DNA of 64,000 nucleotides from Acidimicrobiia bacterium (GTDB taxonomy: Bacteria > Actinomycetota > Acidimicrobiia > IMCC26256 > PALSA-610), in NCBI GenBank assembly GCA_038320885.1, contig JBBQER010000003.1, positions 11,794 to 75,793 on the forward strand, read 5' to 3'. Made by a program: the position numbers and the translations under genes. The number at the start of each line of letters is the position of its first letter. Position 1 is the first letter of the stretch. The notes under the pieces were generated by a model, which was given only the letters and a program-made list of their open reading frames with translations, made no database searches and was not told the origin of the DNA. Positions 19,737 through 46,043 of this stretch are shown piece after piece.

Positions 19737-19740
19737 CTCT

Positions 19741-20093
19741 TGGAGGTGGGGGGAGTCGAACCCCCGTCTCCCGAACTCTAAATGGGACTTCTCCGAGCGC
19801 AGCCGATGATTGGTTTCGGGTGAGCTGCCGGGCATCGGCACTCTGCAGCCACCCAATCCTCGTTTGATGTCCTCGCCGGCCCCGAGGCCTTGCCGGTAAG
19901 TAAGTCACTCTCGATGACGCACCGTCCGAGCGAGTGACGGGCTCGGCGCGGGCGAGCTACCTAATTACTTAGGCAGCTAGTGCCATGCTGTTGTTGTTGG
20001 CATGTATTGGTTTTGCCGGCTCTTTCACGACGATCCGGCGACGTCGGCTCGCTTCTCCCACCTCGATCCCCGAGATCGAAGCCACGCACCCCC
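19741..20093 (-). ncRNA. ssrA: tmRNA (transfer-messenger RNA)
   Basis: Minus strand 5' end GGGGGTGCGTGGCTTCGATCTCGGGGATCGAGG. 3' end GGGGGTTCGACTCCCCCCACCTCCA, a T-arm plus acceptor stem with a G3:U pair. CCA is not encoded. Internal tag ORF GCC AAC AAC AAC AGC ATG GCA CTA GCT GCC TAA gives ANNNSMALAA. Confidence 0.92.
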
Positions 20094-24193: not shown

Positions 24194-24849
24194 ATGATGG
24201 ATCAGCAGCCCGAACCGGGCGCCCCGCGCTTCCAACCGCCCGGGGCTCTCCAGTTCGAGCCCGCTGCTTGCCCAGTTTGCGACGGAACCGAGGTCGGCAA
24301 GCGTTTGGAAAAGGCCGTGCAAGGTGTCGAGATGCCTTTCGGTATCTGCACGAACTGCGCCACGCTCTATGCGAATCCCAGACTTACGGTCGATTCTCTC
24401 CGCATGCTTTACAGTTCCGAAGAATTCTTCGAGGGTACGACGTGATCGCGTCGTGGGGCGTCATGACGATCATTCGCCATCCCCGGGCGACGATGGCGAA
24501 GTTTCACGCCGCTCTGAAGCCGGGCGGTCTTTGGGCGTTCAACCCCTACGACAACCGGTCGCTCCGGGGCCGAGCGTTTGGAGCGAGGTGGTACATCCTC
24601 GTCCCCAACACCGGCCAGATCCACAAGGACAGGACCCTGCGGAGACTTGTCGACGAGGCGGGCTTCGATCTGGTCGCGCGGCTCCGCGATCGCCCCGACG
24701 CGAGCTTCGAGCGCCTTGCCTTCGTCTTGTTGTCGCACATCAGCCACTGCAGTTGTGACAAGTTCTTCGAGCGTGTGCATTTCCTGAACCGCATCATCGT
24801 CCCGCTGCGCGCGCCCGACGCGTTTGAGTACACGTGCGTCAAGCGGTGA
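24194..24849 (+). pseudogene. SAM-dependent methyltransferase pseudogene (paralog of 33107-34039 with the Rossmann core deleted)
   Basis: N-terminal Zn-ribbon part (CPVCDG...CTNCATLYANPRL) runs into TGA at 24443-24445. The C-terminal part continues in another frame (DVIASWGVMTIIR...). By manual alignment about 280 nt (33347-33626 of the intact copy) are missing at about 24436. Confidence 0.75.
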
Positions 24850-26699
24850 GTGCCGAGACGACCGCTGCAGCACGAGTCCGCACGGCAACGTTCTCTGTCG
24901 TGGCATTCGGCGTTCTGCTCGCGGTTGCGTTCTTTCCGATGGCTTTCTCGAAACTGTCTCTCGTCGATGATGACGGGGCGCTGCTCGCCACGCTGAACGA
25001 ATTCCTGAAGCACGGAAGTCTCTACGACCACACGCACGGTGCCTACGGCCCGTTCTACTACTCGTTCATGGGGCTCATGTATCGGCTGACCGGACAGGAA
25101 CCCACGCTGTTCGGCGCGCGGCTTCTCGCGCTGGCGTTCACTACCGCGGCAGCCGCCATGTTCGCGGCGACGGTGTGGCGCGTGACGCGAAGTCTCGCGT
25201 TCACCCTCCTGGCGGAGGCGGTGACCTTCGCCATGCTTATCGAGGTCGCCGGCGGGGTGCCGAGCCATCCGGGACCGTTGATCGTGCTCGTCGTCTCGAT
25301 ACTGGTGTTCGCACTCGCGAGTTACGCCCTCGACCAACGCACTGTGTTCCTCGTGTGGGCGGGGTTTGCCGTCGGTGCGCTGCTGATGACCAAGATCAAT
25401 GTCGGCCTCCTCGCTGCGACGGCTGTGGCCGTCGGGTTCGTGGTCGGAAATCGGGCCTACCCCAAGGCATGGCGCGCGATCACGGCCACCGCCGCGGTGC
25501 TCTTTCCGTTCGCGTTGATGTTTCAACGGTTGTACCTGATCTCGATTGCCGAGTTCGGTCTTCTCGTCAGCGTCGGATTGCTGCTCTCGTACGCGCCGAT
25601 GCATGTCGACGAGATAGCGCTTCGCCGGCGAGCACTCGGAACGGTCGCAGTCGCAGCGATCGTGCCGATGGTTGCGTCGGCGCTCTGGCCGCTCCTGCAC
25701 GGAACGAGCCCGGGCGCGCTCTTCCGGGCACTTGTGATTCAACCGCTCGGGCAAGCTGATAATTTCACGGCTGAGCCCGGAATCGACTTCGTGTGGCTCG
25801 CGTTCGTCAGCACGGTCGGGATCGCCTACGTCGCCGTCGCGAAGAAGAACGAAGACGGCGAGCCGACACTCTTCGGCAATTCTTGGGTCCCCAACGTCGC
25901 CTTCGGCCTCGCCGCGTTGTATGTCCTCGGACTAGGAACGGTAGGTGGCGTCCGGACCAACTCTCTTGCGTGGCTTCCGGCGATCGCAATGATCCCGGCG
26001 CTCGCGTGGCTTACGGCGGTGCCGGCGAAGATCCGGCTCGTGCTCAGGTTCCTCGTTCCCGTAGCCATCCTTCAGATGCTGCACGCGTATCCCGTTGCCG
26101 GATTGCAGCGAGCGTGGGGTGCGGTCGCGATGTGCGTTCCCTGTGTGATCGCCATTGCGATTGCAACGGAGCGATTGCCCTTGTGGCTGGCTGCCGGCCG
26201 AGCAGAGCGTGCCGCCCTCGTGGGCGCGCTAGGTGTTGTGCTCGTCCTCACCGCGTCGGTTTCGCCGATCGCCGCGTGGCATGACTACGAGCAGGCGACG
26301 CCGCTTCGATTGCCGGGTGCACGCCTAATCCGCGTGGGCGCGTCGGAGGTAGTGACGCTGACGCGTCTGACACAGGTCGTCAAGCGGGACTGCGACACCT
26401 TTTACGCTGCGCCGGGTCTGGGCAGCCTCTACTTTTTCACGAAACTCCCCGCGCCGACCGGCCATCTTGCGAACTGGCCGGGAGTGCTCAACGAGAGAGA
26501 ACAGCGAGACGTTGCCGCGGACCTCGCGCGGCTCTCGTCGAGCGGCAAGCGGGTCTGTATCGTCCGTGACCTGCACCGCCAGAAAGAATGGCTGCAGAGC
26601 TCGTACGGAAAAGGACCGTTGGGTAAATCTCTGGCGCGATACCGAGCGCCTCTCGCTGTTGTCGGTCACTTCTCCGTTTCGGGAGAGGGCCGCGCGTAG
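24846..26699 (+). CDS. polytopic membrane protein, candidate GT-C-fold (ArnT/PMT-like) glycosyltransferase, copy A
   Basis: GTGA overlap with the upstream stop. More than 10 TM segments, acidic first-loop motif LVDDDGAL, C-terminal soluble domain. Roughly two-thirds identical by eye to 34036-35904. Confidence 0.55.
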   Translation: MSAETTAAARVRTATFSVVAFGVLLAVAFFPMAFSKLSLVDDDGALLATLNEFLKHGSLYDHTHGAYGPFYYSFMGLMYRLTGQEPTLFGARLLALAFTTAAAAMFAATVWRVTRSLAFTLLAEAVTFAMLIEVAGGVPSHPGPLIVLVVSILVFALASYALDQRTVFLVWAGFAVGALLMTKINVGLLAATAVAVGFVVGNRAYPKAWRAITATAAVLFPFALMFQRLYLISIAEFGLLVSVGLLLSYAPMHVDEIALRRRALGTVAVAAIVPMVASALWPLLHGTSPGALFRALVIQPLGQADNFTAEPGIDFVWLAFVSTVGIAYVAVAKKNEDGEPTLFGNSWVPNVAFGLAALYVLGLGTVGGVRTNSLAWLPAIAMIPALAWLTAVPAKIRLVLRFLVPVAILQMLHAYPVAGLQRAWGAVAMCVPCVIAIAIATERLPLWLAAGRAERAALVGALGVVLVLTASVSPIAAWHDYEQATPLRLPGARLIRVGASEVVTLTRLTQVVKRDCDTFYAAPGLGSLYFFTKLPAPTGHLANWPGVLNEREQRDVAADLARLSSSGKRVCIVRDLHRQKEWLQSSYGKGPLGKSLARYRAPLAVVGHFSVSGEGRA

Positions 26700-26800: not shown

Positions 26801-27730
26801 TTACGACGGCCGAAGCACCGCGACGTAGTCGATGACGTCACGGCCGTCAGGTCCGGGCACGGCGAGGATGGTGTGACTGCTCGAGACCTCGAAGCCGTGG
26901 TGGCGAACCAGGTCTTCGATCTCGTCGATGCTGTCGAAGACGATCGCGTGATCGTAGAAGGCAGCATTCGTTACCGTCGAGAAGAACACACGACCGTCGG
27001 GAGGTAGGAGACGCGCAAGCGCGTCCAGTCCAGCGGCAGGATTCGCCAGGTGCTCGACCACCTCGCTGAACAGGACGAGGTCGTACGGCTCGCCGATTGT
27101 CGTATCGAACTGGAGGAAATCCGTTTCGGAGTAGTGCACCCCTGCGGGGTGACGAACCGGATCGACGGCGGCCATGCGCCGCGCCAGGTCGAGACTCAGC
27201 GGGCTGATGTCGTTGAGCGTGAGCTCCACGCGCTCGGCCGCTCGGCCGACCGCGAGGGCATAGGTACCCGGCCCTACGCCGACTTCGAGCACGCGCATGC
27301 CGTCGGTTACGAACGGCAAGACCTCGTTCTCGAAATAGACGAGCTTCTCGAGATGGTTGGGCCAGAAGATCTGCGCGAGGTACAAACCGAAGAGATACCG
27401 GCGACCCATGACGTCTTCGTCTGAGTAGAGTCCGTCCTCGCTCACGAGATCGGGGCCGCCATCGAACTGTCCGGTGCGGTAATAGCGATCCTGCATGCGC
27501 ATGACATCAACGGTCATCTCGACGAAGGCTTCGATCGCGTCATCGAAACGGGCGTCGTCGCCGTCAAGGGCTCGATGCAACCGGCGAAGATGATGCTCAG
27601 CTCTTTTGTAGTAGTCCGGCCCGGTTGCGCACAGGACTTCGATGGGGTCGGCGGCGAAGCCGTAGTCAGCCACCACCGCACGAGCTCGATCGAGCAGGTC
27701 GTGGTCTCCGTTTCCGCCGGCGTTCTCCAT
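26801..27730 (-). CDS. class I SAM-dependent methyltransferase
   Basis: Motif I VLEVGVGPGTYA. GAGGAAGG RBS directly after the upstream stop. Last gene of the Dlt-like operon. Confidence 0.75.
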   Translation of the reverse strand: MENAGGNGDHDLLDRARAVVADYGFAADPIEVLCATGPDYYKRAEHHLRRLHRALDGDDARFDDAIEAFVEMTVDVMRMQDRYYRTGQFDGGPDLVSEDGLYSDEDVMGRRYLFGLYLAQIFWPNHLEKLVYFENEVLPFVTDGMRVLEVGVGPGTYALAVGRAAERVELTLNDISPLSLDLARRMAAVDPVRHPAGVHYSETDFLQFDTTIGEPYDLVLFSEVVEHLANPAAGLDALARLLPPDGRVFFSTVTNAAFYDHAIVFDSIDEIEDLVRHHGFEVSSSHTILAVPGPDGRDVIDYVAVLRPS

Positions 27731-27740
27731 GGGACCTTCC

Positions 27741-27857
27741 TCAGAATCCTCGATACTCGAAGGGGAAGTGCCGCAACGGTAGTCGCTGCAATGACATCAT
27801 CCGCGATGGAATCGTGAGGCCAGCGAGAGCCTCGACTTTACGTGCAAGAGCGATCAC
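27741..27857 (-). pseudogene. degenerate second DltX-like ORF (ends FEYRGF; TM segment lost; frameshifted relative to the ancestral GTG)
   Basis: Aligns with 29099-29221 from EA... to the stop (30 codons, same length). The hydrophobic core is replaced by R-containing sequence, and the GTGCGTGA-coupled start frame hits TAA after 7 codons. Confidence 0.3.
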
Positions 27858-29077
27858 GCACCGTTCGAGGTTTCGCTCCGCCGGGCACAGCCCGCGGACT
27901 TGTACCCCACCTGCGAGATCAGTTGACACAGCTCGCCTGCGAGGTACGGACCCATCGGGCCCGCTCGTCTCAGGTGCATGACATCATGGAAAGCCAGTGG
28001 CGGAACGAACCTGGTCGCCGAGAGCGGCTGGTACCGAATGTTGCGCGCCGCGAAGTTGCTGCGGAACTGTTCGAGGTGTCGTTCGACGCCGCCGACTGCC
28101 GCGGCGAACTCGCTATTGGTCGCGAGCCACTGGCTGTTGACCGGCGCGTCGTAGACGTAGCTGGGAATCTTCGAGTCGCGGAGTTCCGTTGCGATCGCGC
28201 GCAGGATGAGCTTGTTGATCCCGCTGTTGACCTGGCTCGCTCTCTCCATCCATCTCGCCCATTGGATGGCGCTGTGCCATGCGCGCGGCTCGTGCAGGCG
28301 GTATTGAAACCAGAAGTTCACCGGGAGCATGCCGAGGATGAGCTGCGAGCGGTCGGGTTTCCGGACGGCGAGCGCAGCGGCCCGTCCATCGCGACTCAGC
28401 GGCCCGAAGTCGTCGAAGAGCTTGTGGATTCGGTTGCTGTAGTACTGCCGGTTCTCGAGTGGTTGGAACGCCGAGTTGGCCAAACCCCAAGCGAGATCTG
28501 AGGGCGAGAGCAATCCCGCGGCGAGCGGCCAACTGGTCGGCTTCGACAAGAGTTGCACGGCGGCTCGGCTGTCGAGCTGCGTCGATTGATGTATCGCCAT
28601 CGGACTCGTAATCCACGTGGGGTTGAGACTCATCACGATCATGTCGGGCTTGCTCTGGATCACGTCGAGCAGAGTGAAATAGTCGTCGGCGGCCCGCATC
28701 CCATCGAGTACATAAGCATCGACGCCGATCCGGCGCCCGTTGATCCCCGCGAGTTGCTTCGTGATGAGACTCGGCAGGAACTCTCGATAGTTCACGTCGG
28801 TAATATCTCCCTCCGATCCCGTGATCCACGCGATACGGAAGCGGACCTTGCCGAATGGGCTCCGCGCGAACCCACGGGGGTCGTTGACGTCGAGCGCGAG
28901 ATTCTCCACCGAGGGGTTCTTCGTGAACTGGGTCGCGACCTGCGCTGCGTGCGCCGGCAGTACCAACGAGAGCACGACGAGGAACCCGACTGCCCACACG
29001 TGTATGCGGACGAAACTGCCCGCGGTCGTACCCACGCCGAAGCGACGCGCCGCGAATCCGTTGATCCGTTCGATCAT
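27854..29077 (-). CDS. membrane-anchored DltD/SGNH-like acyl-transfer protein
   Basis: N-terminal signal anchor VWAVGFLVVLSLVLPAHA. Block-I-like ITGSEGD and block-V-like HDVMHL (DxxH). Position directly after the MBOAT and DltX-like genes. Confidence 0.6.
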   Translation of the reverse strand: MIERINGFAARRFGVGTTAGSFVRIHVWAVGFLVVLSLVLPAHAAQVATQFTKNPSVENLALDVNDPRGFARSPFGKVRFRIAWITGSEGDITDVNYREFLPSLITKQLAGINGRRIGVDAYVLDGMRAADDYFTLLDVIQSKPDMIVMSLNPTWITSPMAIHQSTQLDSRAAVQLLSKPTSWPLAAGLLSPSDLAWGLANSAFQPLENRQYYSNRIHKLFDDFGPLSRDGRAAALAVRKPDRSQLILGMLPVNFWFQYRLHEPRAWHSAIQWARWMERASQVNSGINKLILRAIATELRDSKIPSYVYDAPVNSQWLATNSEFAAAVGGVERHLEQFRSNFAARNIRYQPLSATRFVPPLAFHDVMHLRRAGPMGPYLAGELCQLISQVGYKSAGCARRSETSNGA

Positions 29078-29098
29078 CGGACTGTCCGGCGTGCCATC

Positions 29099-29221
29099 TC
29101 AGAAGCCCTGATATACGAAGTGCACGGTTGTAACCGTCGTCGCGGCAACGACGATCAAGAGGACTGCTATCAGGAGGCCAATGAACGCCTCAGCCACCCA
29201 CTTGCGAACGCGATCACGCAC
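29099..29221 (-). CDS. DltX-like 40-aa membrane peptide with C-terminal FxYxxF motif
   Basis: Not in the ORF track because it is under 60 aa. GTG start overlaps the upstream stop (GTGCGTGA). VRDRVRKWVAEAFIGLLIAVLLIVVAATTVTTVHFVYQGF*: positive N-terminus, one TM segment, terminal FVYQGF. Confidence 0.55.
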   Translation of the reverse strand: MRDRVRKWVAEAFIGLLIAVLLIVVAATTVTTVHFVYQGF

Positions 29222-29666
29222 CGTTCGTCCCTCCGTTCTGCGAAGTGCAACTCGCCGACCTGTATTTCACCTGTGACACCAGCTGACACAGCTCTCCTGC
29301 GAGTACGGACCCAGCGGCTCTGCCCGGCGCATATGAATCACATCTTGGCGGCGGAAACTCAGTCCCGAAACGAACCTGCCGGCGGTCAGCGGTTGGTACC
29401 GGATGTTCGGGGTCGAGAAGCTCGGTTGGAGTTGCTCGAGCTGGTGCTCGATGCCACGGACTTCGTTGTCGAGAGGCTTGCTCGTCTCGAGGAAAACGCG
29501 GTTGACCGGAGCATCGTAAACGTAACTGGGAAGCCTCGACTCCCGGAGAGCCTTGGCGATCGCTCGCAAGATGATCTTGTTGATCCCGCTCCTTCCTTCG
29601 TTCGACTGGTGCATCCACTGCGCCCACCGGAAGGGCGCGCCGCGGATCCGTTGATGCGTTGATCAT
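29214..29666 (-). pseudogene. internally deleted, frameshifted copy of the DltD-like gene
   Basis: DNA homology to the first roughly 11 codons of 27854-29077 (ATGATC..ATCAACGGAT.CGCGGCGCG). It then jumps to the C-terminal third, which is read in a different frame (GINKIILRAIAKALRESRLPSYVYDAPVN...QDVIHMRRAEPLGPY) and returns for GELCQLVSQVKYRSA. Confidence 0.7.
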
Positions 29667-30889
29667 CGGAGACCCAGCAGCGCGGAGTAGAAGTGTCCGA
29701 GTTGGCCGAGGTGGAGCGTGAGCATCGGGATACTGACCGCGACGTACACGAACACGAGGGTGGCCTTACCGATCGACAGCCATCGCGAGGGTTCAGTCGC
29801 GGCCGGTCGGACTTGGTTGAGCAACCGGGCTCCGATAAGAGCGCATGAGTGGTAGGTGCCGAATATCACGAGCGGAACCGTGATGTCATGCCATAGCGCG
29901 ATCGTCATCATCGTGGCGGCGATGGCGAGATACTGCGACCGTTGACGCATACCGCCGAGCGGAACGAACACGTTCCGTCGCGCCCATCGGGTCAAGCTCA
30001 TATGCCAGTTGTTCCAGAAATCCTGCGGGTTGGTGCGCGTGAAGGGTCGGCTGAAGTTCGGCTTGAGGCGGAAGCCGAAGAGGCGCGCGGTGCCGATGGC
30101 GAGATCGGAGTAACCAGAGAAGTTGAGGTAGAAGAACCACGTGTACATGAAGAGTTCGATCCAGAGCACCAACGCGCCGTTGGTCTTGTACAGCACGAGA
30201 ACGTCGCTGCTGCTCGCGAGCGGGACCGCGAGGACGAACACTTTGAGCACTCCGACGATGACCTGGGTGAACGCTGCTCGGTAGTCCTCGAGCTTCAACC
30301 CCTCCGTCTTCTGGGACTGCGCGTACACCTCGGAGTACTCGATAACCGGCCCGATCACTTGGACCGGCGGAAAAAATCCGTAAAACAGCACGTGCCCAAG
30401 CGGTTGGCGGGGAATGGTGCCGAGGAAGGACTGCACCAGCAGATCAACGGCGCGGAAGGTCGCGAACGAGAGCCCGATGGGCAGGATGATCGGACGGATC
30501 GAGTCGATCGTTCCTGCCACGTTGGAGATCTGCCAGAGCCGGTTGTTCAAGAAGACATTGAACGAGATCGTGAAACTTGCGGGGCGAAGCTTCCAAAGCA
30601 CCATCGGTGCCAATGTCGCGAGAATGGAGATGCTGAGAACGTGCGGGCCCCACTTGTGCTCGCCGCTCCACGCGACGACACGTTGTAGCGTCGCGACCGC
30701 CACCCAGAAGGCGAGGTAGAACAAAGCGAGCCGAGGCGCGACCAGCACAAGCAGGTATGCGCCGGCGAGCGTGAGCAACGTTCGGCGGGCCCATGCCCAC
30801 GGCAGAACGTAGAAGAGTGGCACCAGGACGAGACACAGCGCGAAGAAGTCTGCGAAGAAGTCGAATGCGCTCGGTCCGGTCGTCGGCAC
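29663..30889 (-). CDS. MBOAT family O-acyltransferase (DltB/AlgI-like)
   Basis: FWNNWHMSLTRWARRNVFVPLGG and ALWHD His motifs. Polytopic, 408 aa. Confidence 0.9.
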   Translation of the reverse strand: MPTTGPSAFDFFADFFALCLVLVPLFYVLPWAWARRTLLTLAGAYLLVLVAPRLALFYLAFWVAVATLQRVVAWSGEHKWGPHVLSISILATLAPMVLWKLRPASFTISFNVFLNNRLWQISNVAGTIDSIRPIILPIGLSFATFRAVDLLVQSFLGTIPRQPLGHVLFYGFFPPVQVIGPVIEYSEVYAQSQKTEGLKLEDYRAAFTQVIVGVLKVFVLAVPLASSSDVLVLYKTNGALVLWIELFMYTWFFYLNFSGYSDLAIGTARLFGFRLKPNFSRPFTRTNPQDFWNNWHMSLTRWARRNVFVPLGGMRQRSQYLAIAATMMTIALWHDITVPLVIFGTYHSCALIGARLLNQVRPAATEPSRWLSIGKATLVFVYVAVSIPMLTLHLGQLGHFYSALLGLR

Positions 30890-30892
30890 TGG

Positions 30893-32677
30893 TCATCGAG
30901 CCAGGGTGATGTGCGCGGGCGTCTGTGGTCGGCCTTCGCGGAGGTCCAATCGGAACAGTCCCGGGAACGCGCTGTCGGCTTCGAAGCCGTGGTCGGCGTA
31001 GAAGGTCGCGACCTGGCCGTTCTTGCGCGTGGCCTCGTAGTGGCCGACCAACGAGGTGACACCTCGGGCAACCGCGTCGTCGGCGATCGCGGTCAGGAAT
31101 GCGGTCTCGACGCCGCGCCCCAATACCCGGCAGCTCATCAGGAAGGTGTCGATGGTCGAGGCGTCGGCACCGTGATCGACGATCGCCACGCCGACGATTC
31201 CGTAGTCGCCGAATCGGTCGCTCACTTGAATCGCCCACACGTCATGCGCCGGCGATTGCACGAGTTGCCGGATCTGACTCTCGTCGCGACGGATCGTCGT
31301 GACGTTGAACTGATTGGTCTTGTTCGTGAGCTGCGCGACCCGGGTGACGTGATCGTCGGAGACGCTCGAGAAGATCACTCGGAGCTCGAGCGACGCGAGG
31401 AACTGCGGGCGGTCCATCGTCTTCAGCTGCGTCCGGCGTTTCGCTTCCGACTGCATCATCTCGGTCCGCTGGCGATCTTCGCCGGAGATCCGGACGCGCC
31501 GGAAGAGGCCCGACTCGCTCAACAGGAACGGCAGCTCGGCGAGCTCTTCGGGAACCTGCAAACAGCGGAGCTCGGGGAACGCGGCGGAGACCTCGGCGAT
31601 CTCGAAAGGGCTGTCGTCGACGAACACGAGGCTGTCGACGCCGATGTTGAGCTCCGCCGCGATCGCCCGGATGCTCTCCGACTTCGGCTGCCAGTGGATC
31701 TGCCGCGTCGCGATGTCGGCGAGCGTCAGCACCATTCCTTCGTGGCGCTCGAAGACGTCGAGCACTTCGGCTTCGCTGTTCTTGGTCGCGAGGGCGAGCA
31801 TGAAGCCGCGCGACTTGAGCGTTTGCAACTCGTGCTGGAACGCCTGGAACGCGCGCCCGGGGAACGTGTCACCGAGCTGCAGGCCGCCGAGTCCGTCCTC
31901 GCCGACGATGCCGCCCCAGAGTGTGTTGTCGCAGTCCAACACGATGCACTTGGGCGGCGGCGTGGTGCGGCGTACCACCACCTCCGCGATCTGCGCGCCC
32001 AGCTCGAGCCAGAAGTCGCCCCGGTACGGCTGGCGGTACATCGCCCATTTCTGCGTGTCGAACACCTGTGACTCGCCGGCGAGGCGTTGGAGCGCGTCGA
32101 GATCGACGATCTCCACGAACGGCGCCGACGCGAGGCCGTCGAGCCATGCCGACACCGCCTCCCGATGCAACCGGCCGACGCGCAACGACGTGACGACGTC
32201 GCGGAGATCGATACCCCAGCCGCCCGGGTGCGGTGGTGTAGACGCGCAGGTCGTCGCTTTCGACGTGGAGTCGAGGTTCGCGACCAGCGAGGCGAGCTCG
32301 GCGACACCATCAAGGATCTCGGTTCCGGCCGCGTCGTCGCCGGCGAGGTAGCGCGCGAGCGGCTGTTCGAACACGTCTTCGATGCGCCAGAGCAGCACGA
32401 CGACTTCGACGTCCTCGCCGAGCATCGCCGTGGGATCGAGGCAGACCTGGTGCAGCTGGTTGTAGTCGGCGAAATGAATTTGGGGATCGGTGAATCCCGC
32501 GTCGAGCAGCAACGCGCCGGCTTGGGCTTCGACCGGCTCCGCGGTGAAGGACGCCGCGACACCAACGCTCACGTCGCCGCGGGATTCGGTTTCGCGTTGC
32601 TTGCGGTGTTGGAGCCACCGCCGTTGGTGTTCGCGCGGCGTCCGTGGTACAGAGCCTGACTCGGCGCCCACGATCAA
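30893..32677 (-). CDS. FkbH-like HAD-IIIC family protein (candidate carrier-protein loader)
   Basis: HAD motif I VLDCDNTLWGG, ATKNSE, VFVDDSPFE. C-terminal GNAT-like region with FLMSCRVLGRGVE. TTGA overlap with the carrier-protein stop. Confidence 0.85.
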   Translation of the reverse strand: MIVGAESGSVPRTPREHQRRWLQHRKQRETESRGDVSVGVAASFTAEPVEAQAGALLLDAGFTDPQIHFADYNQLHQVCLDPTAMLGEDVEVVVLLWRIEDVFEQPLARYLAGDDAAGTEILDGVAELASLVANLDSTSKATTCASTPPHPGGWGIDLRDVVTSLRVGRLHREAVSAWLDGLASAPFVEIVDLDALQRLAGESQVFDTQKWAMYRQPYRGDFWLELGAQIAEVVVRRTTPPPKCIVLDCDNTLWGGIVGEDGLGGLQLGDTFPGRAFQAFQHELQTLKSRGFMLALATKNSEAEVLDVFERHEGMVLTLADIATRQIHWQPKSESIRAIAAELNIGVDSLVFVDDSPFEIAEVSAAFPELRCLQVPEELAELPFLLSESGLFRRVRISGEDRQRTEMMQSEAKRRTQLKTMDRPQFLASLELRVIFSSVSDDHVTRVAQLTNKTNQFNVTTIRRDESQIRQLVQSPAHDVWAIQVSDRFGDYGIVGVAIVDHGADASTIDTFLMSCRVLGRGVETAFLTAIADDAVARGVTSLVGHYEATRKNGQVATFYADHGFEADSAFPGLFRLDLREGRPQTPAHITLAR

Positions 32678-32910
32678 ATTCCTGCAACGCCTTTGGCTTT
32701 GAGGACGCTGCGGGCGAGCGCGATGCTACGCATCTTCATGATGTCCCGCGTGCTGAGCGAGACGTCGAAGCTGTCCTCGATCAGCGTGACGAGATTCATG
32801 GCGGCGAGGCTGTCCCACTCCTCGACGGTGTCGGGAGAGCTCTCCTCGTTGAGGACGTCGGTGCTGAGCCCGAGCCCTTCGGCGAATATCTCGAGCAGTG
32901 GGTCCGCCAT
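32674..32910 (-). CDS. acyl/peptidyl carrier protein (DltC-like position)
   Basis: 78 aa, phosphopantetheine attachment motif EEWDSLAAMNLV. First gene of the operon. Confidence 0.85.
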   Translation of the reverse strand: MADPLLEIFAEGLGLSTDVLNEESSPDTVEEWDSLAAMNLVTLIEDSFDVSLSTRDIMKMRSIALARSVLKAKGVAGI

Positions 32911-33106: not shown

Positions 33107-34039
33107 ATGGCCGATGAGCCCGAACCGGTCTCCCCGCTGTTCGAACCGCTGGGTGCCCTCGAGTTCGAGTCGACGGCGTGCCCGATATGCGGAGCAACCC
33201 AGGTAGACAAGCGGCTGCAGAAGACCGTGCAAGGAGTCGGGACGCATTACGGCGTCTGCACGAATTGCGGAACGCTCTACGCGAACCCCCGGTTGACGGT
33301 CGAATCCCTGCGGACGCTGTACAGCTCGCAGGAGTTCTTCGAAGGCAAGCAAGGCAATCTCAACTACTACTCCTTCCTCAGTGGTGAGGACTATCTCCGC
33401 AAGACCGCTCGCGGCCGGATCCATCGGTTCCAGAAGTACGCGCGGGGGAAGCGATTGCTCGAGGTCGCGTCGGCAGCGGGATTCTTCCTCGCCGAGGCCG
33501 CCGCCGCGGGATTCGAGGCGGAGGGTGTCGAATTCTCGAGGCCGATGGCGAGGTACGCGTCCGAACGTTGGGGCGTGCCGGTCACGGCGGGATCGATCGA
33601 GGAAACGGAGCTCGAAGCGAACGCATATGACGTGATCGCCTCGTGGGGTGTCATGACGATCATTCGTGATACGAAAGCGTTGATGAAGAAGTTCAACACC
33701 GCGCTGAAGCCGGGTGGAGTCTGGGCGTTCAACACCTACGACAACCGGTCGCTCTGGGGTCGGGCGTTCGGTGCTCGCTGGTACATCCTCGTCCCCAACA
33801 CCAGTCAGATCCACTGCGACAAGACGTTGCGGCGTCTCCTCGACGAGGCTGGGTTCGATCTCGTCGCCCGGCGCCGGGACCGTCCCCATGCGAGTGTCGA
33901 GCGGCTGGCGTTCGTGTTGCTGTCGCATCTGAGCCATGGAGTGCGCGACAGGTTCTTCGAGCGCGTCCACTTCTTGAACCGGTTGATCGTTCCCCTCCAA
34001 GCGCCGGATGCGTTCGAATACGTCTGCGTCAAGCGGTGA
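33107..34039 (+). CDS. SAM-dependent methyltransferase with N-terminal Cys4 zinc ribbon
   Basis: GGAGGAA RBS. CPICG...CTNCG. Motif I LLEVASAAGFF. Intact paralog of 24194-24849. Confidence 0.8.
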   Translation: MADEPEPVSPLFEPLGALEFESTACPICGATQVDKRLQKTVQGVGTHYGVCTNCGTLYANPRLTVESLRTLYSSQEFFEGKQGNLNYYSFLSGEDYLRKTARGRIHRFQKYARGKRLLEVASAAGFFLAEAAAAGFEAEGVEFSRPMARYASERWGVPVTAGSIEETELEANAYDVIASWGVMTIIRDTKALMKKFNTALKPGGVWAFNTYDNRSLWGRAFGARWYILVPNTSQIHCDKTLRRLLDEAGFDLVARRRDRPHASVERLAFVLLSHLSHGVRDRFFERVHFLNRLIVPLQAPDAFEYVCVKR

Positions 34040-35904
34040 GTGACGAATCGACGAGCCAGACGCGGGCCAGAACCGGATCGGCGATTGTCGGTGTCGCCGT
34101 ACTTGGTGCCCTCCTGACGATTGGGTTCTTCCCGGAGCTCTTCTCGCGCGCCGATGGCTACGACGACGAGGGTGCTCTCGTCGTAACCCTGCGCCAGTTC
34201 GTGAACCACGGAAGCCTCTACGACCACACGCACGGCGCGTACGGGCCCTTCTACTACTCGTTCCTCGGCTTCATCTACAAGGTGACCGGCCAGAGCCCCA
34301 CGCCTTTCAACGGACGGCTCATCGCCCTGGGTATCACCGGGTTGTCGGCCGCGTTGTTCGCGGCGACGGTCTGGAGAGTGACGCGGAGCCTGGCATTCAC
34401 GCTCCTCGCGGAGCTCGTCACGTTCTGCTTGCTGGTCGGTGTCGCCGGAAATCAGCCAACGCACCCCGGCCCCTTGATCGTCCTGCTCGTCGCGGTGTTG
34501 CTCTACGGCCTCGCGGGCTACGCCCTGGACCCGCGCACGGTGTTCCTCGTGTTCATCGGAGGGGCAACCGGCGCCCTCTTGATGTGCAAGATCAATGTCG
34601 GGCTCTTCGCCGCGACCGCCGTCGTCATCGGCTTCGTCGTCGGTAACCGGCGCTATCCGAAGACGTGGAGCAAGGCGGTGGCTGCGGCGGCGTTGCTGCT
34701 GCCGTTCCTGCTGATGGCGCAGAGGCTCTACCAGCTGGAAAAGGCACAGTTCGCGCTGCTCGTGGCCCTCGGGTTGCTCCTGACCTACGTGCCGATGCAC
34801 GTAGACGTCGTCACGCTTCCTAGACGCGCGCTGGCCACGATAGCGGTATCCGCGCTGGCACTGATGGTCGCGTCAGTGCTCTGGCCGCTCGCGGACGAGA
34901 CGAGTCCGGGCGCGCTCGTGCGGGGAGTGCTGATCCAACCGACGGCACAAGCGGAGCACCTGACCGGGCGGGCTGCGGTCACATTCGAGTGGCTCGCGTT
35001 CCTCATCACGATCGGTGTCACGTACGCAGTTCTGCTCCGCAAAGGCGGCCGTGACGTCCGGCAGCTCGTGAGCCCATGGCTCCTCAGCGCGGGTCTCGGC
35101 CTGGCCGGGCTCTACGTGCTCGGGCTCGCCGTACTACACGGAAACGTGGTGTTCCTTGCCTGGCTTCCGTCGATCGCGCTGGTTCCCGCCCTGGCCTTGC
35201 TCTCCGACGCACCGCCGAAGATACGGCTGGTACTGCGCTTCCTCATTCCCGTCGCGATCTTGCAGATTCTCCATGCCTATCCCGTGCCCGCCTCGCAGCG
35301 CGTGTGGGGACTCGTCGCGATCTGCATTCCCTGCGTGATCGCGATGGCGGTCGCCGCCGACCGCCTCGCACTCTGGCAGCGGGCCAAGCCCGGTGCGCGA
35401 GCCCTCATCATCGGAGCGCTGGGCCTCGTGTTCCTCCTCTTCGGCGGGACATCGCCGGTGAGCGCGTGGCACACCTACGCGGACCAGACACCGCTGCACC
35501 TCCCCGGCAGCCGGCTGGTGCGGTTGCCCAAGGCCCGGGTCGTCGAGTTGCGCCAGCTCACGGCTGCCGTGCGGAGTCGGTGCGACACGTTCTACACCGC
35601 GCCCGGCTTCGCCAGCCTCTACATCTATACCGGGCTCCCAACGCCGACCGGCCTCCTGGCCAACTGGCCGGGGGTGCTCGACGACCACGAGCAACGGGAG
35701 CTCGCGATGCAGCTCGCGACCTTGTCGAAGAGCGGCGAACGCGTGTGCATCGTTCGCGTCCTGGGCCGCCAGAAGGAGTGGCTTGCCAGCTCGTACGGAG
35801 CAGGACCGTTGGGTAGGTCCCTCGCGCACTACCAGGCGCGGATCGCCGTCGTCGGCCACTACTCGATCTCGGTCGAGGCAAAGACGCCGAAGCGCCCGTC
35901 GTAG
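34036..35904 (+). CDS. polytopic membrane protein, candidate GT-C-fold (ArnT/PMT-like) glycosyltransferase, copy B
   Basis: GTGA overlap with the upstream stop. YDDEGAL first-loop motif. Same architecture as 24846-26699. Confidence 0.55.
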   Translation: MSDESTSQTRARTGSAIVGVAVLGALLTIGFFPELFSRADGYDDEGALVVTLRQFVNHGSLYDHTHGAYGPFYYSFLGFIYKVTGQSPTPFNGRLIALGITGLSAALFAATVWRVTRSLAFTLLAELVTFCLLVGVAGNQPTHPGPLIVLLVAVLLYGLAGYALDPRTVFLVFIGGATGALLMCKINVGLFAATAVVIGFVVGNRRYPKTWSKAVAAAALLLPFLLMAQRLYQLEKAQFALLVALGLLLTYVPMHVDVVTLPRRALATIAVSALALMVASVLWPLADETSPGALVRGVLIQPTAQAEHLTGRAAVTFEWLAFLITIGVTYAVLLRKGGRDVRQLVSPWLLSAGLGLAGLYVLGLAVLHGNVVFLAWLPSIALVPALALLSDAPPKIRLVLRFLIPVAILQILHAYPVPASQRVWGLVAICIPCVIAMAVAADRLALWQRAKPGARALIIGALGLVFLLFGGTSPVSAWHTYADQTPLHLPGSRLVRLPKARVVELRQLTAAVRSRCDTFYTAPGFASLYIYTGLPTPTGLLANWPGVLDDHEQRELAMQLATLSKSGERVCIVRVLGRQKEWLASSYGAGPLGRSLAHYQARIAVVGHYSISVEAKTPKRPS

Positions 35905-35913
35905 GCTTGCCCG

Positions 35914-36831
35914 GTGGCGGAAGAGCAACGCGTTGATGGCGGACCCGAGTTGGAACGTCTTGCCGGTCTCGGCTGGCCGCCGCACGCGGTGCGCAGCACC
36001 GCCGCCGGCGTTCATGTCAGTGGCGACGAAGTTGGCGTGCACTACCCCGAAGGTGGGTTGGCCGCGCTCGGTCTCGACGGTGGAAGCGGGTACTGGTTCG
36101 ACCATCGAGCGCGCGAAGTCGCCGAAGCCCTCGAGGCGGCCACGGACGCCCGGTCGATCTGGGACATCGGCGCCGGTGCCGGGTCGATGTCGCTGCGTCT
36201 CTCCCGGGCCGGCTTCGACGTCGTGTCGGTCGAACCGTTGATGGAAGGCGCAGTCGCGATCGCGCAGATGCGGTGCAGCGACGTGTTCTGCAGCACGCTC
36301 GAGGGGCTTCGGCTGCCTACGCACTCCGTTCGCGTTCTCGGGTTCTTCGACGTGATCGAGCACCTTGACGATCCGCGGGCGCTGATGGAGGAAGCCCAAC
36401 GGGTCTTGGAACCGAGCGGCACGATTGTCCTCACGGTTCCGGCCTTTCAATCGCTTTGGAGCAACTCCGACGTGGTCGCAGGGCACCAGCGCCGGTACAG
36501 CCGCAAAGCGCTCGACGCGTTCATGCAGTCGTGCGGACTCCGTCGCGTGACCTCGAAGTACCTCTTCGCCTCGCTCCTCCCGCCCGCGGTGGCACTGCGC
36601 ACGATCCCGTACCGGCTCGGGCGGCGTCGCACCACCGAGGACGTGCTCGCGGCCAATGCGAAACGGCTCGCTCCGAACGCGCGCGTCGACGCCGTCGCCG
36701 CGCGGCTCATGCGCGTCGAGAGCGCAATCGCGCGGCGGTTTCCGCTCCCGGCCGGCTTGAGCGTGCTGGGTGTCTACACGACCGCGGACGCCCAGGGGAG
36801 CGAGCGGCCGAGGAACTCCTCGAGTCGCTGA
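35914..36831 (+). CDS. class I SAM-dependent methyltransferase
   Basis: Motif I IWDIGAGAGSMS and post-I DVVSVEP. 305 aa. Confidence 0.75.
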   Translation: MAEEQRVDGGPELERLAGLGWPPHAVRSTAAGVHVSGDEVGVHYPEGGLAALGLDGGSGYWFDHRAREVAEALEAATDARSIWDIGAGAGSMSLRLSRAGFDVVSVEPLMEGAVAIAQMRCSDVFCSTLEGLRLPTHSVRVLGFFDVIEHLDDPRALMEEAQRVLEPSGTIVLTVPAFQSLWSNSDVVAGHQRRYSRKALDAFMQSCGLRRVTSKYLFASLLPPAVALRTIPYRLGRRRTTEDVLAANAKRLAPNARVDAVAARLMRVESAIARRFPLPAGLSVLGVYTTADAQGSERPRNSSSR

Positions 36832-37538
36832 GTCGGCTCTCGAAAGTACTCGCGCAACCGTTCCTCGATCTCGGTGTCCACGGGTTCGTCGGTGGTTGCC
36901 GACGCGTTGACTGCGGAGCCGACCGCGGCCGGCCGGAACCTGTCGTCGACACCGAGTCGGGCGTACAGGTCGGCGACGACGCCGGCGTCGGTCACGAGCT
37001 CTTCGAACACCAACACGTGGATGAGCTCGGGCGCGGCGTGGCGAACGAGTCGCTCGAGATATTCGATGTACCGCCCGCGGGCGAGATAGGCGAACGGCGA
37101 AACCGAGAAGCGCTCGCGATCCCATGGTCGCTTCCACGCCTCCACGCGGAGGGCCTCGGAGATCGGAAGGGCTTCCACGCCGTTCTCGGCGCTGAATCGG
37201 TAGTTCGAGATCGCCCGGTGGACCGGGTCACGGAGCACCACGATGAGCGGAGCAGCCGGCAACATGGTGGCGATTCGTCGCGCGGCAACGTCCGACTCGA
37301 TGTAGCTCGTGCTCTTCTCGCCCCGCACTTGCGTTTCGGGCTCCGAGAAGAATTCAGATTCGTAGTACTCGAGTCCGCGCGCGTATCGGTCGTCGTCGAG
37401 GAAGAACTTCGGCTCGGGTCGAAGCGGTTTTGCCATCTCGATCTGCGGATGCGCGTCGAGGAGGTCGCAGAGATACGTCGTTCCGCACCGCTGCGCGCCG
37501 ACGACCACGAAGTGATCGACGGGCTTCCGATCAGGCAT
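36774..37538 (-). CDS. sulfotransferase family protein
   Basis: 5'-PSB-type loop VVVGAQRCGTTYL and 3'-PB-like VVLRDPVHRAISNY. ATGCCTGA overlap with the upstream GT2 stop. Confidence 0.8.
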   Translation of the reverse strand: MPDRKPVDHFVVVGAQRCGTTYLCDLLDAHPQIEMAKPLRPEPKFFLDDDRYARGLEYYESEFFSEPETQVRGEKSTSYIESDVAARRIATMLPAAPLIVVLRDPVHRAISNYRFSAENGVEALPISEALRVEAWKRPWDRERFSVSPFAYLARGRYIEYLERLVRHAAPELIHVLVFEELVTDAGVVADLYARLGVDDRFRPAAVGSAVNASATTDEPVDTEIEERLREYFREPTQRLEEFLGRSLPWASAVV

Positions 37539-40259: not shown

Positions 40260-42320
40260 ATGAAAACGAGTAGCGCGGCGGGCGAGAGCGCGATCGGGTC
40301 GGAACCTACGGCGGCGACCTACCGCCCGCACCTCGATGGGTTGCGGGCGGTAGCCGTCTACCTGGTCGTGCTGTTCCACGCGGGCAGCAGCTGGTTCTCC
40401 GGCGGGTTCATCGGTGTCGACGTGTTCTTCGTGCTCTCCGGCTACCTGGTGACACAACTGCTCCTCCGCGACATCGTGAGCAACGGGCGCATTCGCCTCG
40501 GGCGCTTCTATTCCCGACGATTCCGGCGGCTGTTGCCCGCCGCGTTCGTGGTTCTCATCGTCACGGCGTGCGTGTACACCGCGATCGCGTCGCCGGCAGA
40601 GCAGATCGATGTGATCGGATCGTTCAAAGCGGCGTTCCTGTACTCGACGAACTGGTACTTCGTGCACCAGTCCACGGCGTACTTCGGCGCGAACATCGCG
40701 ACCAATCCGGTGTTGCATTTCTGGTCGTTGGCGGTTGAGGAGCAGTTCTACGTCGTTTGGCCCTTGACGCTCACCGGGGCATTCGTGCTGACCCGACGAT
40801 GGGATCGCGCCAAGCAGCTGCGCATGATCGGGGCGGTCGTTGCCGTCGGCGTGCTTGGCTCCGCTCTGTTCGCGTTGTCACTCAAGTCCGGTGATCCGAA
40901 CCGCGCCTACTACGGAACCGACACCCGCGCCTACGAGCTGCTCGCCGGCGCGTTGGTCGCACTGGTTCCTTCAATCGTGGCGACCGCGCGGCAACGTCGC
41001 GGCCAAATGCGCGCCGCGACGATCGCGAGCATCGCCGCGCTCGGCGTGCTGGCTTCGTCATGGGTTCATCTCGACGCCATCGAGCGCGGCATCGCGGTGA
41101 CGATCACGACGGTCGTGCTCATCGTCGCGCTCGAAACGGCCGACGGCGGCATTGTGAAGCGCCTTCTCTCGACTCGGACAATGACCTACCTGGGCAAGAT
41201 CTCGTACGGCACGTACCTGTGGCACTGGCTCGTTATCCTCGTGCTCCTCAAGACCTTCCACCCCAGCACGCTCGCGACCATCGGCATCGCGTTCCTCGTC
41301 GCCACCGGCCTCGCATCCCTCAGCTTCGACCTGATGGAACACCCGATCCGGGCCTCGCAACGCCTCGACCGACATCGGGGAGCCGTGATCGCGCTCGGTT
41401 TGACCGTGACGGTGGTGAGCGCGCTCGTGTTGGTGCCCTCGATACTCGACGATTCGCACGCCGGGGCCGTGGGAGTCGCCGGATCGGTGACAAGCGGCGT
41501 CGCGCCGGTTCCGGCCGGGCTCGACTGGAGAGCAGTCAAGCGGGAAGACCGGAGCGCTCCCACCTGCTTCGCCAAGCCGCTGACGAAGTGCGTCGTCGTG
41601 CACGGGACCGGCAAGACGGTCGCGCTCATCGGCGACAGCCACGCGCAAATGCTGATTGCGCCGATGACTGAGATCGCCAAGGCCGAGAATTGGACGCTGG
41701 CGGTGCTCATCTGGAACGCCTGTCCGTGGCAAGACGGGCTCTGGCGCTTCACGGCTGCGAACCGGCGGAGCTGCCTTGCCTGGAAGGCCGATCTACGCAC
41801 CCGCGTGATCCCTCGACTGAACCCCGACGTCGTCGTGTTGATACACGCGCCGATGGACCGCGAAGGGTTGAAGGGCCAGCACCTCGGGGGACCGGACGGC
41901 CCGCTCGCGACGGGCTCACCGGCGGCCGAGCGAGCCATTGAGGCCGCGACCGACAAGACGGTTGCACGCCTCAGCGCGAACCGTGACGTGGTGATCATCG
42001 AGCCGATTCCGCAGGGCCCGCCGGGCTATGACCCTTTGGGATGCCTTTCGACAGCGCGCTTCCTCGACCAGTGTCGCTTCGTCGCGAGCGCCTCGCCTTC
42101 GCCGACGGAGCAGCACTACCGCGCCCTTGCACGGTCCTCGGATCACGTGTTCGATCTCGACATCGACCGGTTGGCCTGTCCCTATCTCCCCATCTGCGAC
42201 CCGGTGGTCCGCGGCAAGATCGTCTGGTACGACCTCTCGCACCTCTCGATCGCGTATTCGCGTACGCTGGCAGAGCCGATTCGATCGCTCTTGACTGCCG
42301 ACGGGATCGGATCCGGTTAA
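40260..42320 (+). CDS. acyltransferase-3 (OafA/YrhL-like) membrane domain fused to a C-terminal SGNH domain
   Basis: YRPHLDGLRAVAVYLVVLFHAG...VDVFFVLSGYL (AT3). VALIGDSHAQM (SGNH block I). 686 aa. Confidence 0.85.
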   Translation: MKTSSAAGESAIGSEPTAATYRPHLDGLRAVAVYLVVLFHAGSSWFSGGFIGVDVFFVLSGYLVTQLLLRDIVSNGRIRLGRFYSRRFRRLLPAAFVVLIVTACVYTAIASPAEQIDVIGSFKAAFLYSTNWYFVHQSTAYFGANIATNPVLHFWSLAVEEQFYVVWPLTLTGAFVLTRRWDRAKQLRMIGAVVAVGVLGSALFALSLKSGDPNRAYYGTDTRAYELLAGALVALVPSIVATARQRRGQMRAATIASIAALGVLASSWVHLDAIERGIAVTITTVVLIVALETADGGIVKRLLSTRTMTYLGKISYGTYLWHWLVILVLLKTFHPSTLATIGIAFLVATGLASLSFDLMEHPIRASQRLDRHRGAVIALGLTVTVVSALVLVPSILDDSHAGAVGVAGSVTSGVAPVPAGLDWRAVKREDRSAPTCFAKPLTKCVVVHGTGKTVALIGDSHAQMLIAPMTEIAKAENWTLAVLIWNACPWQDGLWRFTAANRRSCLAWKADLRTRVIPRLNPDVVVLIHAPMDREGLKGQHLGGPDGPLATGSPAAERAIEAATDKTVARLSANRDVVIIEPIPQGPPGYDPLGCLSTARFLDQCRFVASASPSPTEQHYRALARSSDHVFDLDIDRLACPYLPICDPVVRGKIVWYDLSHLSIAYSRTLAEPIRSLLTADGIGSG

Positions 42321-42334
42321 TTCGTCAACCCGAG

Positions 42335-42796
42335 TTACTCGCGGTCGCCCTTGAGCGCTCGCTGCGTCTCGCGTTTGGCGTCCCGTTCGGCGATTGCCTG
42401 TCGCTTGTCGTAGCGCGCCTTGCCCCGCGCGATCGCAAGCTCGACCTTCGCCCGGCCGTCCTTGAAGTAGACGCTGAGCGGTACGAGCGTAATGCCGCGC
42501 TCCTCGGTCGCGCGGGCGAGCTCGTCGATCTGCTTGTGGTGGAGGAGCAGCTTGCGCGGCCGGACCGGATCGAGATCACCCCGGGAGAACTCGTAGGGCG
42601 ACACGTGCATGCCGAACAGCCAGACTTCGCCATTGTCGATTCGGGCGTAGCCGTCTTGGAGGTTGGCGCGACCGTTGCGGATCGACTTGACCTCGGGGCC
42701 CTTCAACACGATCCCGCACTCGTAGGTATCGAGCACGAAGTAGTCGTAGCGGGCCCTGCGATTCGAGATCACGACCCGGTCGCCGCGGTTCGGCAT
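42335..42796 (-). CDS. smpB: SsrA-binding protein SmpB
   Basis: Full-length 153 aa: ...ISNRRARYDYFVLDTYECGIVLKGPEVKSIR...LLLHHKQIDELA...[23 protein letters not shown]. Confidence 0.95.
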   Translation of the reverse strand: MPNRGDRVVISNRRARYDYFVLDTYECGIVLKGPEVKSIRNGRANLQDGYARIDNGEVWLFGMHVSPYEFSRGDLDPVRPRKLLLHHKQIDELARATEERGITLVPLSVYFKDGRAKVELAIARGKARYDKRQAIAERDAKRETQRALKGDRE

Positions 42797-45960: not shown

Positions 45961-46043
45961 CGCGAGTCGCTCCGCGATCCGGCTGAATGACCGGTCCCGG
46001 AACCACAGCTGATCCGGGCGTTTGCGATGAGTACCATCGCGTG

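Follow-up and report, generated by a model that had tools for sequence, protein, structure and literature searches.

The acyl-tyrosine shuttle has reportedly been established for DltX in 2023 and for PatA in 2025. In D-alanylation, DltB moves D-alanine from the carrier protein DltC to the invariant Tyr of the C-terminal FXYXXF motif of DltX, and DltX, which binds both DltB and DltD, passes the acyl group to the serine of DltD (PMC12148441; PMC13653941). In PatA the FXYXXF motif is fused to the MBOAT itself, which is auto-acetylated on the Tyr (PMC12148441; PMC13653941). The terminus of DltX from L. plantarum reads FIYNEF (PMC13653941), and the MBOAT/SGNH pathways other than Dlt are said to have neither a carrier protein nor a DltX-like microprotein (PMC12148441). 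Here we describe a gene for a 40-residue microprotein at 29099..29221 (-) in a stretch of 64,000 nucleotides (nt) from an Acidimicrobiia bacterium (contig JBBQER010000003.1), which we call the window. The gene is under purifying selection, ends in an invariant motif, lies in a conserved synteny with DltB-like and DltD-like partners, and its product shows a strong topology bias. We consider it likely that this microprotein is the third membrane component, a tyrosine acyl shuttle, of a carrier-protein-fed MBOAT/SGNH acylation machine.

Regarding its general design, the microprotein is close to DltX. Like DltX, it is a single-pass protein of around 40-50 residues with a C-terminus, extracytoplasmic by prediction, that ends in F-x-Y-x-x-F, and it is encoded together with a short DltB-type MBOAT devoid of the motif, a membrane-anchored DltD-fold SGNH protein and a carrier protein. 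However, sequence homology between the two is undetectable beyond the final six residues. The microprotein has F[IV]YQG[FLY] where DltX has FIYNEF, and the E-x-x-x-G stretch that opens the helix is the microprotein family's own. The DltX gene heads its operon, whereas the microprotein gene follows the SGNH gene. DltX belongs to the D-alanylation of Firmicutes, whereas the hosts of the microprotein are Actinomycetota (Acidimicrobiia-like), metagenome-assembled genomes (MAGs) of Alphaproteobacteria, and others. Compared with the dlt operon (DltA, DltB, DltC, DltD), the window holds a DltB-like MBOAT, an acyl carrier protein (ACP) and a DltD-fold protein, but not DltA, the Dlt loader, in place of which the window cassette has an FkbH-like enzyme. 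By analogy, the microprotein probably works like DltX, but it is not a demonstrable member of the DltX family. Its resemblance to DltX may come from deep homology, from fission of the tail of a long MBOAT or from convergence.

A preliminary description of this DNA, made from the letters alone, had already drawn attention to this open reading frame (ORF), and most of what it had read there was borne out. The minus-strand translation of 29099..29221 is VRDRVRKWVAEAFIGLLIAVLLIVVAATTVTTVHFVYQGF* (the asterisk marks the stop codon), so that the 40 residues end, as had been claimed, in FVYQGF (F35-V-Y37-Q-G-F40). The charged N-terminus and the single hydrophobic helix are also there: four Lys or Arg residues stand in front of the helix and none behind it, and the top 19-residue Kyte-Doolittle window scores 2.83. 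Furthermore, the GTG start at 29221, which had been described as overlapping the upstream stop, is formed by the first three bases of GTGCGTGA (29221..29214), and the TGA of the upstream 150-residue ORF lies within the same bases. The DltX consensus that the description had given, Phe-x-Tyr-x-x-Phe with the Tyr as acyl shuttle, agrees with the published FXYXXF motif and its invariant Tyr acting between DltB and DltD (PMC12148441).

Several observations separate this ORF from a chance frame. A Shine-Dalgarno-like GGAGG, read from the sequence at 29230..29234 (-), stands 8 nt upstream of the GTG, and GGAGG is also found upstream of the microprotein gene in the related loci L005, L006 and L013. 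The guanine plus cytosine (GC) content by codon position is 0.63/0.39/0.68, which is coding-like, in a window with 66.7% GC. In a codon-level comparison with L005 and L006, the ratio of nonsynonymous to synonymous differences (pN/pS) was 0.18-0.22, at pS values of 0.53-0.72. Because pN/pS is around 0.2, the GGAGG is conserved and homologues occur in at least 112 clusters, these comparisons indicate that the ORF is not a chance frame and that the microprotein is a genuine, conserved and previously unannotated gene under purifying selection. The terminal motif itself is not a chance feature of the window. The 64 kb contain 985 stop-to-stop segments with 30 codons or more, and F.Y..F ends only 2 of them, the microprotein ORF and its own decayed paralogue; no such segment appeared when the window was simulated 200 times with a first-order Markov model. 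Scans of the Pfam and NCBIfam libraries gave no relevant match for the ORF. We also considered whether the microprotein could be the C-terminus of the SGNH protein; this was ruled out by the different reading frame and by an overlap of 4-8 nt in every locus.

The microprotein has a large family. A profile of the window ORF and two relatives, which came from loci found through the MBOAT, retrieved 36 microproteins in a word-indexed search of a collection of 5.8 billion proteins. All of them were unnamed or labelled 'hypothetical', none had a Pfam domain, and 20-odd shared 70-84% of their residues with the window ORF. An exhaustive HMMER search with a 35-sequence profile against 1.84 billion cluster representatives (clusters defined at 50% identity) gave 112 clusters at E <= 0.001, with lengths of 35-83 residues throughout and with matches that reached the C-terminus in nearly all cases. 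The terminal hexapeptides in this search were FVYQGF (29), FIYQGF (24), FVYQGL (18) and FVYQGY (15), plus minor variants. Tyr occupied position -4 in all 146 family sequences, Phe occupied position -6 in 145 of the 146, and 140 of them closed with F, L, Y or W. Each of the 146 also contained a hydrophobic 19-mer with a score of 1.62 or higher. The mean number of Lys plus Arg residues was 2.53 in the flank before the helix and 0.16 in the flank after it. Because of this positive-inside signature we predict an N-in/C-out topology, with the C-terminal Tyr outside the cell, where the preliminary description had also placed it. The invariant Glu and Gly that open the helix (E-x-x-x-G), together with the terminal F[IV]YQG[FLY], make up the signature of the family, which on these sequence grounds is separate from DltX and unnamed.

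The neighbourhood of the microprotein gene is conserved as well. A scan of GTDB genomes with the MBOAT gave four loci and a scan of metagenomes with the SGNH alignment gave one; the synteny was compiled from the individual contigs. Five loci (L001, L002, L008, L013 and L014) were reached through the MBOAT or the SGNH protein, that is, independently of the microprotein. L001 and L002 are Alphaproteobacteria MAGs whose MBOATs are 47% and 40% identical to that of the window, and the SGNH proteins of L013 and L014 have only 28% and 23% identity. In all five, a small ORF comes straight after the SGNH gene and overlaps its stop codon, and these ORFs end in FIYQGF (L001), FIYQGL (L002), FVYQGF (L008), FIYAGF (L013) and FIYQGF (L014). 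Thus, the search for a small ORF with this terminus near MBOAT genes of related genomes, which the preliminary description had proposed, was positive. On the contigs that are long enough, the order is ACP, FkbH, MBOAT, SGNH, microprotein, and then a Glyoxalase_4/VOC gene and a methyltransferase gene in either order. L006 has the order ACP-FkbH-MBOAT-SGNH(404 residues)-microprotein, with a microprotein 80% identical to that of the window. The arrangement also matches in more divergent members, namely L016 (FVYGGY), L017 (FIYQGY) and a JGI contig (FVYRGL). The Glyoxalase_4/VOC gene is part of the cassette at 9365..9775 in L001, 4824..5249 in L013, 5826..6245 in L014, 1627..2055 in L016 and 800..1213 in L017; in the window, tblastn found no VOC/glyoxalase homologue anywhere. 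A DltA-type adenylating ligase was present in none of the loci, and FkbH/HAD-IIIC adjoins the ACP in every full locus.

In the window, the cassette starts with a stand-alone ACP of 78 residues at 32674..32910 (-), which matches PF00550 (PP-binding) with E 5.3e-6, above the gathering score, and is the predicted cytoplasmic acyl donor and analogue of DltC. An ACP occupies the equivalent position in L001, L006, L013 and L014. The next gene, at 30893..32677 (-), encodes an FkbH-like HAD-IIIC enzyme of 594 residues, the predicted ACP loader that would replace DltA. It matches the FkbH domain TIGR01686 with E 2e-91 (306 bits, the cutoff being 146.65) as well as the HAD-IIIC model TIGR01681, and carries the DxDxT-type stretch LDCDNTLW. 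An FkbH gene adjoining that of a stand-alone ACP is also typical of the FkbH/ACP glyceryl-loading pairs of polyketide and tetronate biosynthesis. However, the window cassette lacks the polyketide synthase, FabH-like enzyme or dehydrogenase partners of those pairs, and whereas they feed an assembly line, the glyceryl-ACP of the window, if that is the product, would go to a membrane MBOAT/SGNH exporter-transferase.

The MBOAT (29663..30889 (-), 408 residues) is of the 'short', DltB-like kind. It matches PF03062 with E 1.6e-21 and aligns to the entire TIGR04091 DltB model with E 4e-33; because its 115 bits are below the curated cutoff of 375, we class it by sequence as DltB-like and not as a DltB equivalog. 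Its sole sequence matches in the PDB are the DltB entries 6bug and 8jem (E 2e-21), and its catalytic His is aligned with that of DltB (alWHd to fWHg). The protein ends in ...FYSALLGLR* and so has no FxYxxF of its own, and the motif is absent from the MBOAT C-termini of the window, L001, L006, L011, L013 and L014. There is one FxYxxF per system, supplied by the microprotein, the other copy in the window being decayed. The long MBOATs with a fused FXYXXF (PatA, and those of AlgI type according to PMC12148441) have the identical acceptor motif and presumably the same chemistry from acyl-Tyr to the Ser of the SGNH protein. They differ from the window in carrying the motif on the MBOAT and not on a separate microprotein, and in taking the acyl group from acyl-coenzyme A instead of a carrier protein. 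The MBOAT scan also found a protein with a fused terminus, a 470-residue MBOAT ending in FLYFIF* in a Eubacteriales MAG (L003, 5764..7176 (+)).

The third partner is the intact SGNH gene at 27854..29077 (-), whose product of 407 residues has an N-terminal membrane helix and is classed as a DltD-fold transferase from an AlphaFold2 model, Foldseek and its invariant columns. It had no Pfam match (PF04914 included) or NCBIfam match at E <= 10 and no sequence match in the PDB, and only 23 relatives, unnamed or hypothetical, were found among the 5.8 billion proteins. The residues of the SGNH pattern do not vary across 21-23 of these relatives: they are S88 (within the block GSEG/GSS/DSLG), N152, D365 and H368. 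The model, based on 21 sequences, has a predicted local distance difference test score (pLDDT) of 73 and a predicted template modelling score of 0.69, and places a helix at residues 19-51. In the Foldseek comparison with the PDB, the top 12 matches were all DltD (3bma, 7dxm, 6pfx and 6o93), with probability 1.00, E values of 1e-5 to 4e-4, around 360 aligned columns and a sequence identity of 13-15%, and the GDSL/SGNH esterases ranked after them. The protein thus shares with DltD the fold, the N-terminal membrane helix and the Ser...Asn...Asp-x-x-His residues, although the identity is low and the DltD family model PF04914 does not match; what the model supports is a DltD-like protein at the level of fold only. 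An MBOAT with its catalytic His next to an SGNH protein with Ser/Asn/Asp-x-x-His corresponds, by sequence and model, to a putative MBOAT-SGNH acyl-shuttle pairing. At the end of the cassette, a gene at 26801..27730 (-) encodes a methyltransferase dependent on S-adenosylmethionine (309 residues; matches to Methyltransf_23/12/11/25), which is 72% identical to the 322-residue methyltransferase of L006; a methyltransferase gene also comes after the microprotein gene in L001, L002, L013, L014 and L016.

The gene order in the window is unusual, because the unit formed by the SGNH and microprotein genes was duplicated in tandem, after which copy A kept the microprotein gene and copy B the SGNH gene. 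In the DNA alignment, 29680..29090 (copy A) and 28330..27731 (copy B) are around 75% identical, and the duplicated, reciprocally decayed region spans 27731..29680 (-). In copy A, a remnant of the SGNH/DltD-like gene, found by tblastn with the 407-residue protein and by blocks of the DNA alignment, includes a 150-residue ORF at 29214..29666 (-). The start of the SGNH gene is retained there, since 29670..29630, which contains the ATG overlapping the stop codon of the MBOAT gene, matches 29081..29039 with 93-100% identity. An internal deletion of around 810 nt follows, and the 3' part corresponds to residues 272-378 (55% identity) and then, behind a frameshift of 1 nt, to residues 379-407. Altogether, the start region and residues 272-407 have their equivalents in the intact gene, with 54-55% amino acid identity. 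The preliminary description had seen a truncated and an intact DltD-like gene on the two sides of the microprotein gene. The truncation is real and the intact gene is DltD-like in its fold, but the truncated copy turned out to be a pseudogene remnant. The possibility of a functional truncated DltD was ruled out, as the 150-residue ORF is mostly out of the ancestral frame (GC at third codon positions is 0.50 in the ORF and 0.76 in the ancestral frame) and lacks the block with the catalytic Ser. As for the remnant frame itself, its ATGA start overlaps the stop codon of the MBOAT, and its end is the original stop that overlaps the microprotein start. These 150 open codons might preserve translational coupling to the microprotein, or be open simply because stop codons are scarce in GC-rich DNA.

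Copy B shows the reciprocal loss. There, a second microprotein gene at 27741..27861 (-) still has the GTGCGTGA start, but its translation ends as VRDRSCT*. Between this start and a FEYRGF*, which lies in another frame, there are indels of -2, -1 and +1 nt, and the hydrophobic helix is gone. The microprotein gene of copy A and the SGNH gene of copy B are intact. A similar remnant was found in L006 at 9782..10175 (-), in inverted orientation, where a frameshifted SGNH 3' remnant and a '...GGRFVYQGF*' without helix lie next to the orthologue of the window methyltransferase. Because L006 also carries an SGNH remnant and the motif beside the orthologous methyltransferase, the duplication predates the split of the window and L006 lineages. 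The window and L006 each ended up with a single functional SGNH gene and a single functional microprotein gene, a retention that we read as selection for both genes.

Putting the cassette together, we propose the following route. The FkbH-like enzyme would charge the stand-alone ACP with an acyl unit. Going by the precedent of the FkbH family, this unit is most likely glyceryl and comes from 1,3-bisphosphoglycerate. The conserved methyltransferase, and in other genomes the VOC protein, may further modify this unit. The MBOAT, by means of its conserved His, would then take the acyl group off the ACP thioester and, across the membrane, attach it to the hydroxyl of Tyr37, which by analogy is the best-supported candidate for the shuttle residue, and the flexible C-terminal hexapeptide would hand it over to Ser88 of the membrane-anchored DltD-fold SGNH protein. 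Finally, the SGNH protein would esterify a glycan of the envelope, which the glycan-modification island around the cassette would produce. By analogy with the described systems we infer that the Tyr is covalently acylated, which acyl group is carried and what accepts it. Because there is no DltA and an FkbH-like loader is found instead, the cargo is probably derived from glycerate rather than being D-alanine.

Other explanations have to be weighed against the acyl shuttle. The most serious of them, though we think it unlikely, is that the microprotein is real and resides in the complex but acts only as a scaffold, an assembly factor or a regulator of the MBOAT and the SGNH protein, with no covalent acyl-Tyr. 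DltX too has a structural side, as its transmembrane helix binds DltB and DltD (PMC12148441; PMC13653941), and the microprotein helix opens with an invariant Glu and Gly, as would be expected of a helix-helix interface. There are also MBOAT and SGNH pairs, those of L011 and L012, with no microprotein nearby. Nevertheless, conservation peaks at the terminal F-[IV]-Y-Q-G-[FLY], with its Tyr in 146/146 sequences, and not in the helix, and the MBOAT has no fused motif like that of the longer MBOATs, so that the acceptor Tyr would be needed elsewhere if the published mechanism applies. As for the idea that the ORF arose by chance in intergenic DNA of high GC content, or is debris of the rearrangement, and has no product, we regard it as extremely improbable. 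The window, at its GC content, is indeed rich in spurious ORFs and this one lies between a pseudogene and an intact gene inside a duplicated segment, but purifying selection and a terminus that stays invariant through more than 100 homologous clusters speak against it, as do the conserved position and Shine-Dalgarno sequence and the absence of any F.Y..F* ORF in the 200 simulated windows. Actually, the decayed copy B shows what a non-functional version looks like. The further suspicion that the homologues are artefacts of overlapping SGNH 3' ends is countered by their separate reading frame and by the pN/pS values.

A different case is whether the microprotein is simply a strongly diverged orthologue of DltX in a locus for ordinary D-alanylation of a teichoic-acid-like polymer, which we hold to be very unlikely. 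The preliminary description had spoken of hallmarks of DltX, and part of this stood: the size and topology, with one helix, the F-x-Y-x-x-F terminus and the DltB-like and DltD-like partners all match. The part that failed is family membership. The alignment to a DltX model that had been proposed as a check came out negative, since Pfam DltX (PF12459), which scores Firmicute-type DltX at E of around 1e-20, gave no match to the window ORF at E <= 10. One of 35 members of the microprotein family did match PF12459, weakly and below threshold (E 0.023). In hhalign, the family against a DltX alignment of four sequences (two of them validated solely by their PF12459 score) reached a probability of 1.1%, with only the final 10 columns aligned. 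A word-indexed search with a DltX-type sequence yielded only two real DltX proteins, the exhaustive search with the microprotein profile contained no proteins of FIYNEF type, and sequence searches of the PDB with the microprotein profile and with the DltX-type sequence found no DltX chain. Furthermore, the loci have an FkbH/HAD-IIIC gene beside the ACP and none has a DltA-type ligase, the microprotein gene comes after the SGNH gene and not at the head of the operon, and Alphaproteobacteria MAGs are among the hosts.

The acyl shuttle, which we prefer, has points to answer as well. The PF12459 and hhalign results just given weigh against it, and so do the following. The pseudogene lies directly upstream of the microprotein gene in the window, so that translational coupling may be altered there. 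L011 (4781..7275) and L012 have MBOAT and SGNH genes with no ACP, FkbH or microprotein nearby, and in L009 (3914..7212) and L010 a relative of the SGNH protein stands beside AT3 and AT3-SGNH genes with no MBOAT; the SGNH relatives in these two contexts are around 50% identical. The model of the SGNH protein is moderately confident (pLDDT of 73, around 50 in the middle third) and its template modelling score to DltD is around 0.37. The proposed identity of the acyl group comes solely from the family assignment of the FkbH-like enzyme. Finally, the window is part of an 81-kb MAG contig, whose MMPL protein falls into clusters at 90% identity or more with proteins from MAGs of Acidimicrobiia and Actinomycetota, and the microprotein is a predicted product.

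Regarding the surroundings, the cassette is flanked by genes for two paralogous polytopic membrane proteins of 621 and 622 residues, 59% identical and with no Pfam match, at 24834..26699 and 34036..35904 (+), which may build the acceptor as glycan polymerases or transferases. Farther away, at 40260..42320 and 45987..48047 (+), there are two AT3-SGNH fusion acyltransferases of 686 residues each. Between the AT3-SGNH genes and the cassette there are a sulfotransferase gene (36774..37538) and genes for a GT2 glycosyltransferase and a DegT aminotransferase, and the island also includes methyltransferases and a fucosidase/beta-helix protein. Because of the two AT3-SGNH fusions and the cassette, the island would encode three separate envelope-acylation systems. 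This content (methyltransferases, sulfotransferase, GT2, DegT, AT3-SGNH, fucosidase/beta-helix and the 621/622-residue proteins) points to a surface glycan as the acceptor. Apart from these genes, the window has a transfer-messenger RNA gene at 19740..20093 (-), with the tag peptide ANNNSMALAA, and SmpB around 22 kb away at 42335..42796 (-). In L006, SmpB adjoins the ACP of the cassette, whereas in the window around 9.4 kb of glycan-modification genes lie between SmpB and the ACP.

A literature search found neither FVYQGF or FIYQGF nor FkbH linked to DltB, DltD or AlgI, Schultz et al. 2023 being outside its scope. It is possible, and we put this forward tentatively, that ACP-FkbH-MBOAT-SGNH-microprotein(-VOC-methyltransferase) is an undescribed envelope pathway of Actinomycetota, Alphaproteobacteria and other phyla, in which a surface glycan would receive an ester that derives from glycerate and may be O-methylated, with a family of shuttle microproteins independent of DltX.

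The microprotein, with its at least 112 related clusters, probably represents a second family of stand-alone shuttles, tied to an FkbH-loaded carrier protein and missed by Pfam and NCBIfam; where the sources name its members, they call them hypothetical proteins. It points to acylation of the cell surface in the style of Dlt outside the Firmicutes, with a different acyl donor, and predicts a new type of cell-surface ester in little-studied phyla. The reciprocal decay of the duplicated SGNH and microprotein pair is a natural experiment which argues that both genes are needed. For annotation processes, we can suggest the rule of looking for a small ORF ending in F-x-Y-x-x-[FLY]* beside short MBOATs. 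If the tentatively proposed pathway is real, a short MBOAT combined with a carrier-protein donor and a microprotein that supplies FxYxx[FLY] in trans would be a design of general use and not a peculiarity of D-alanylation.

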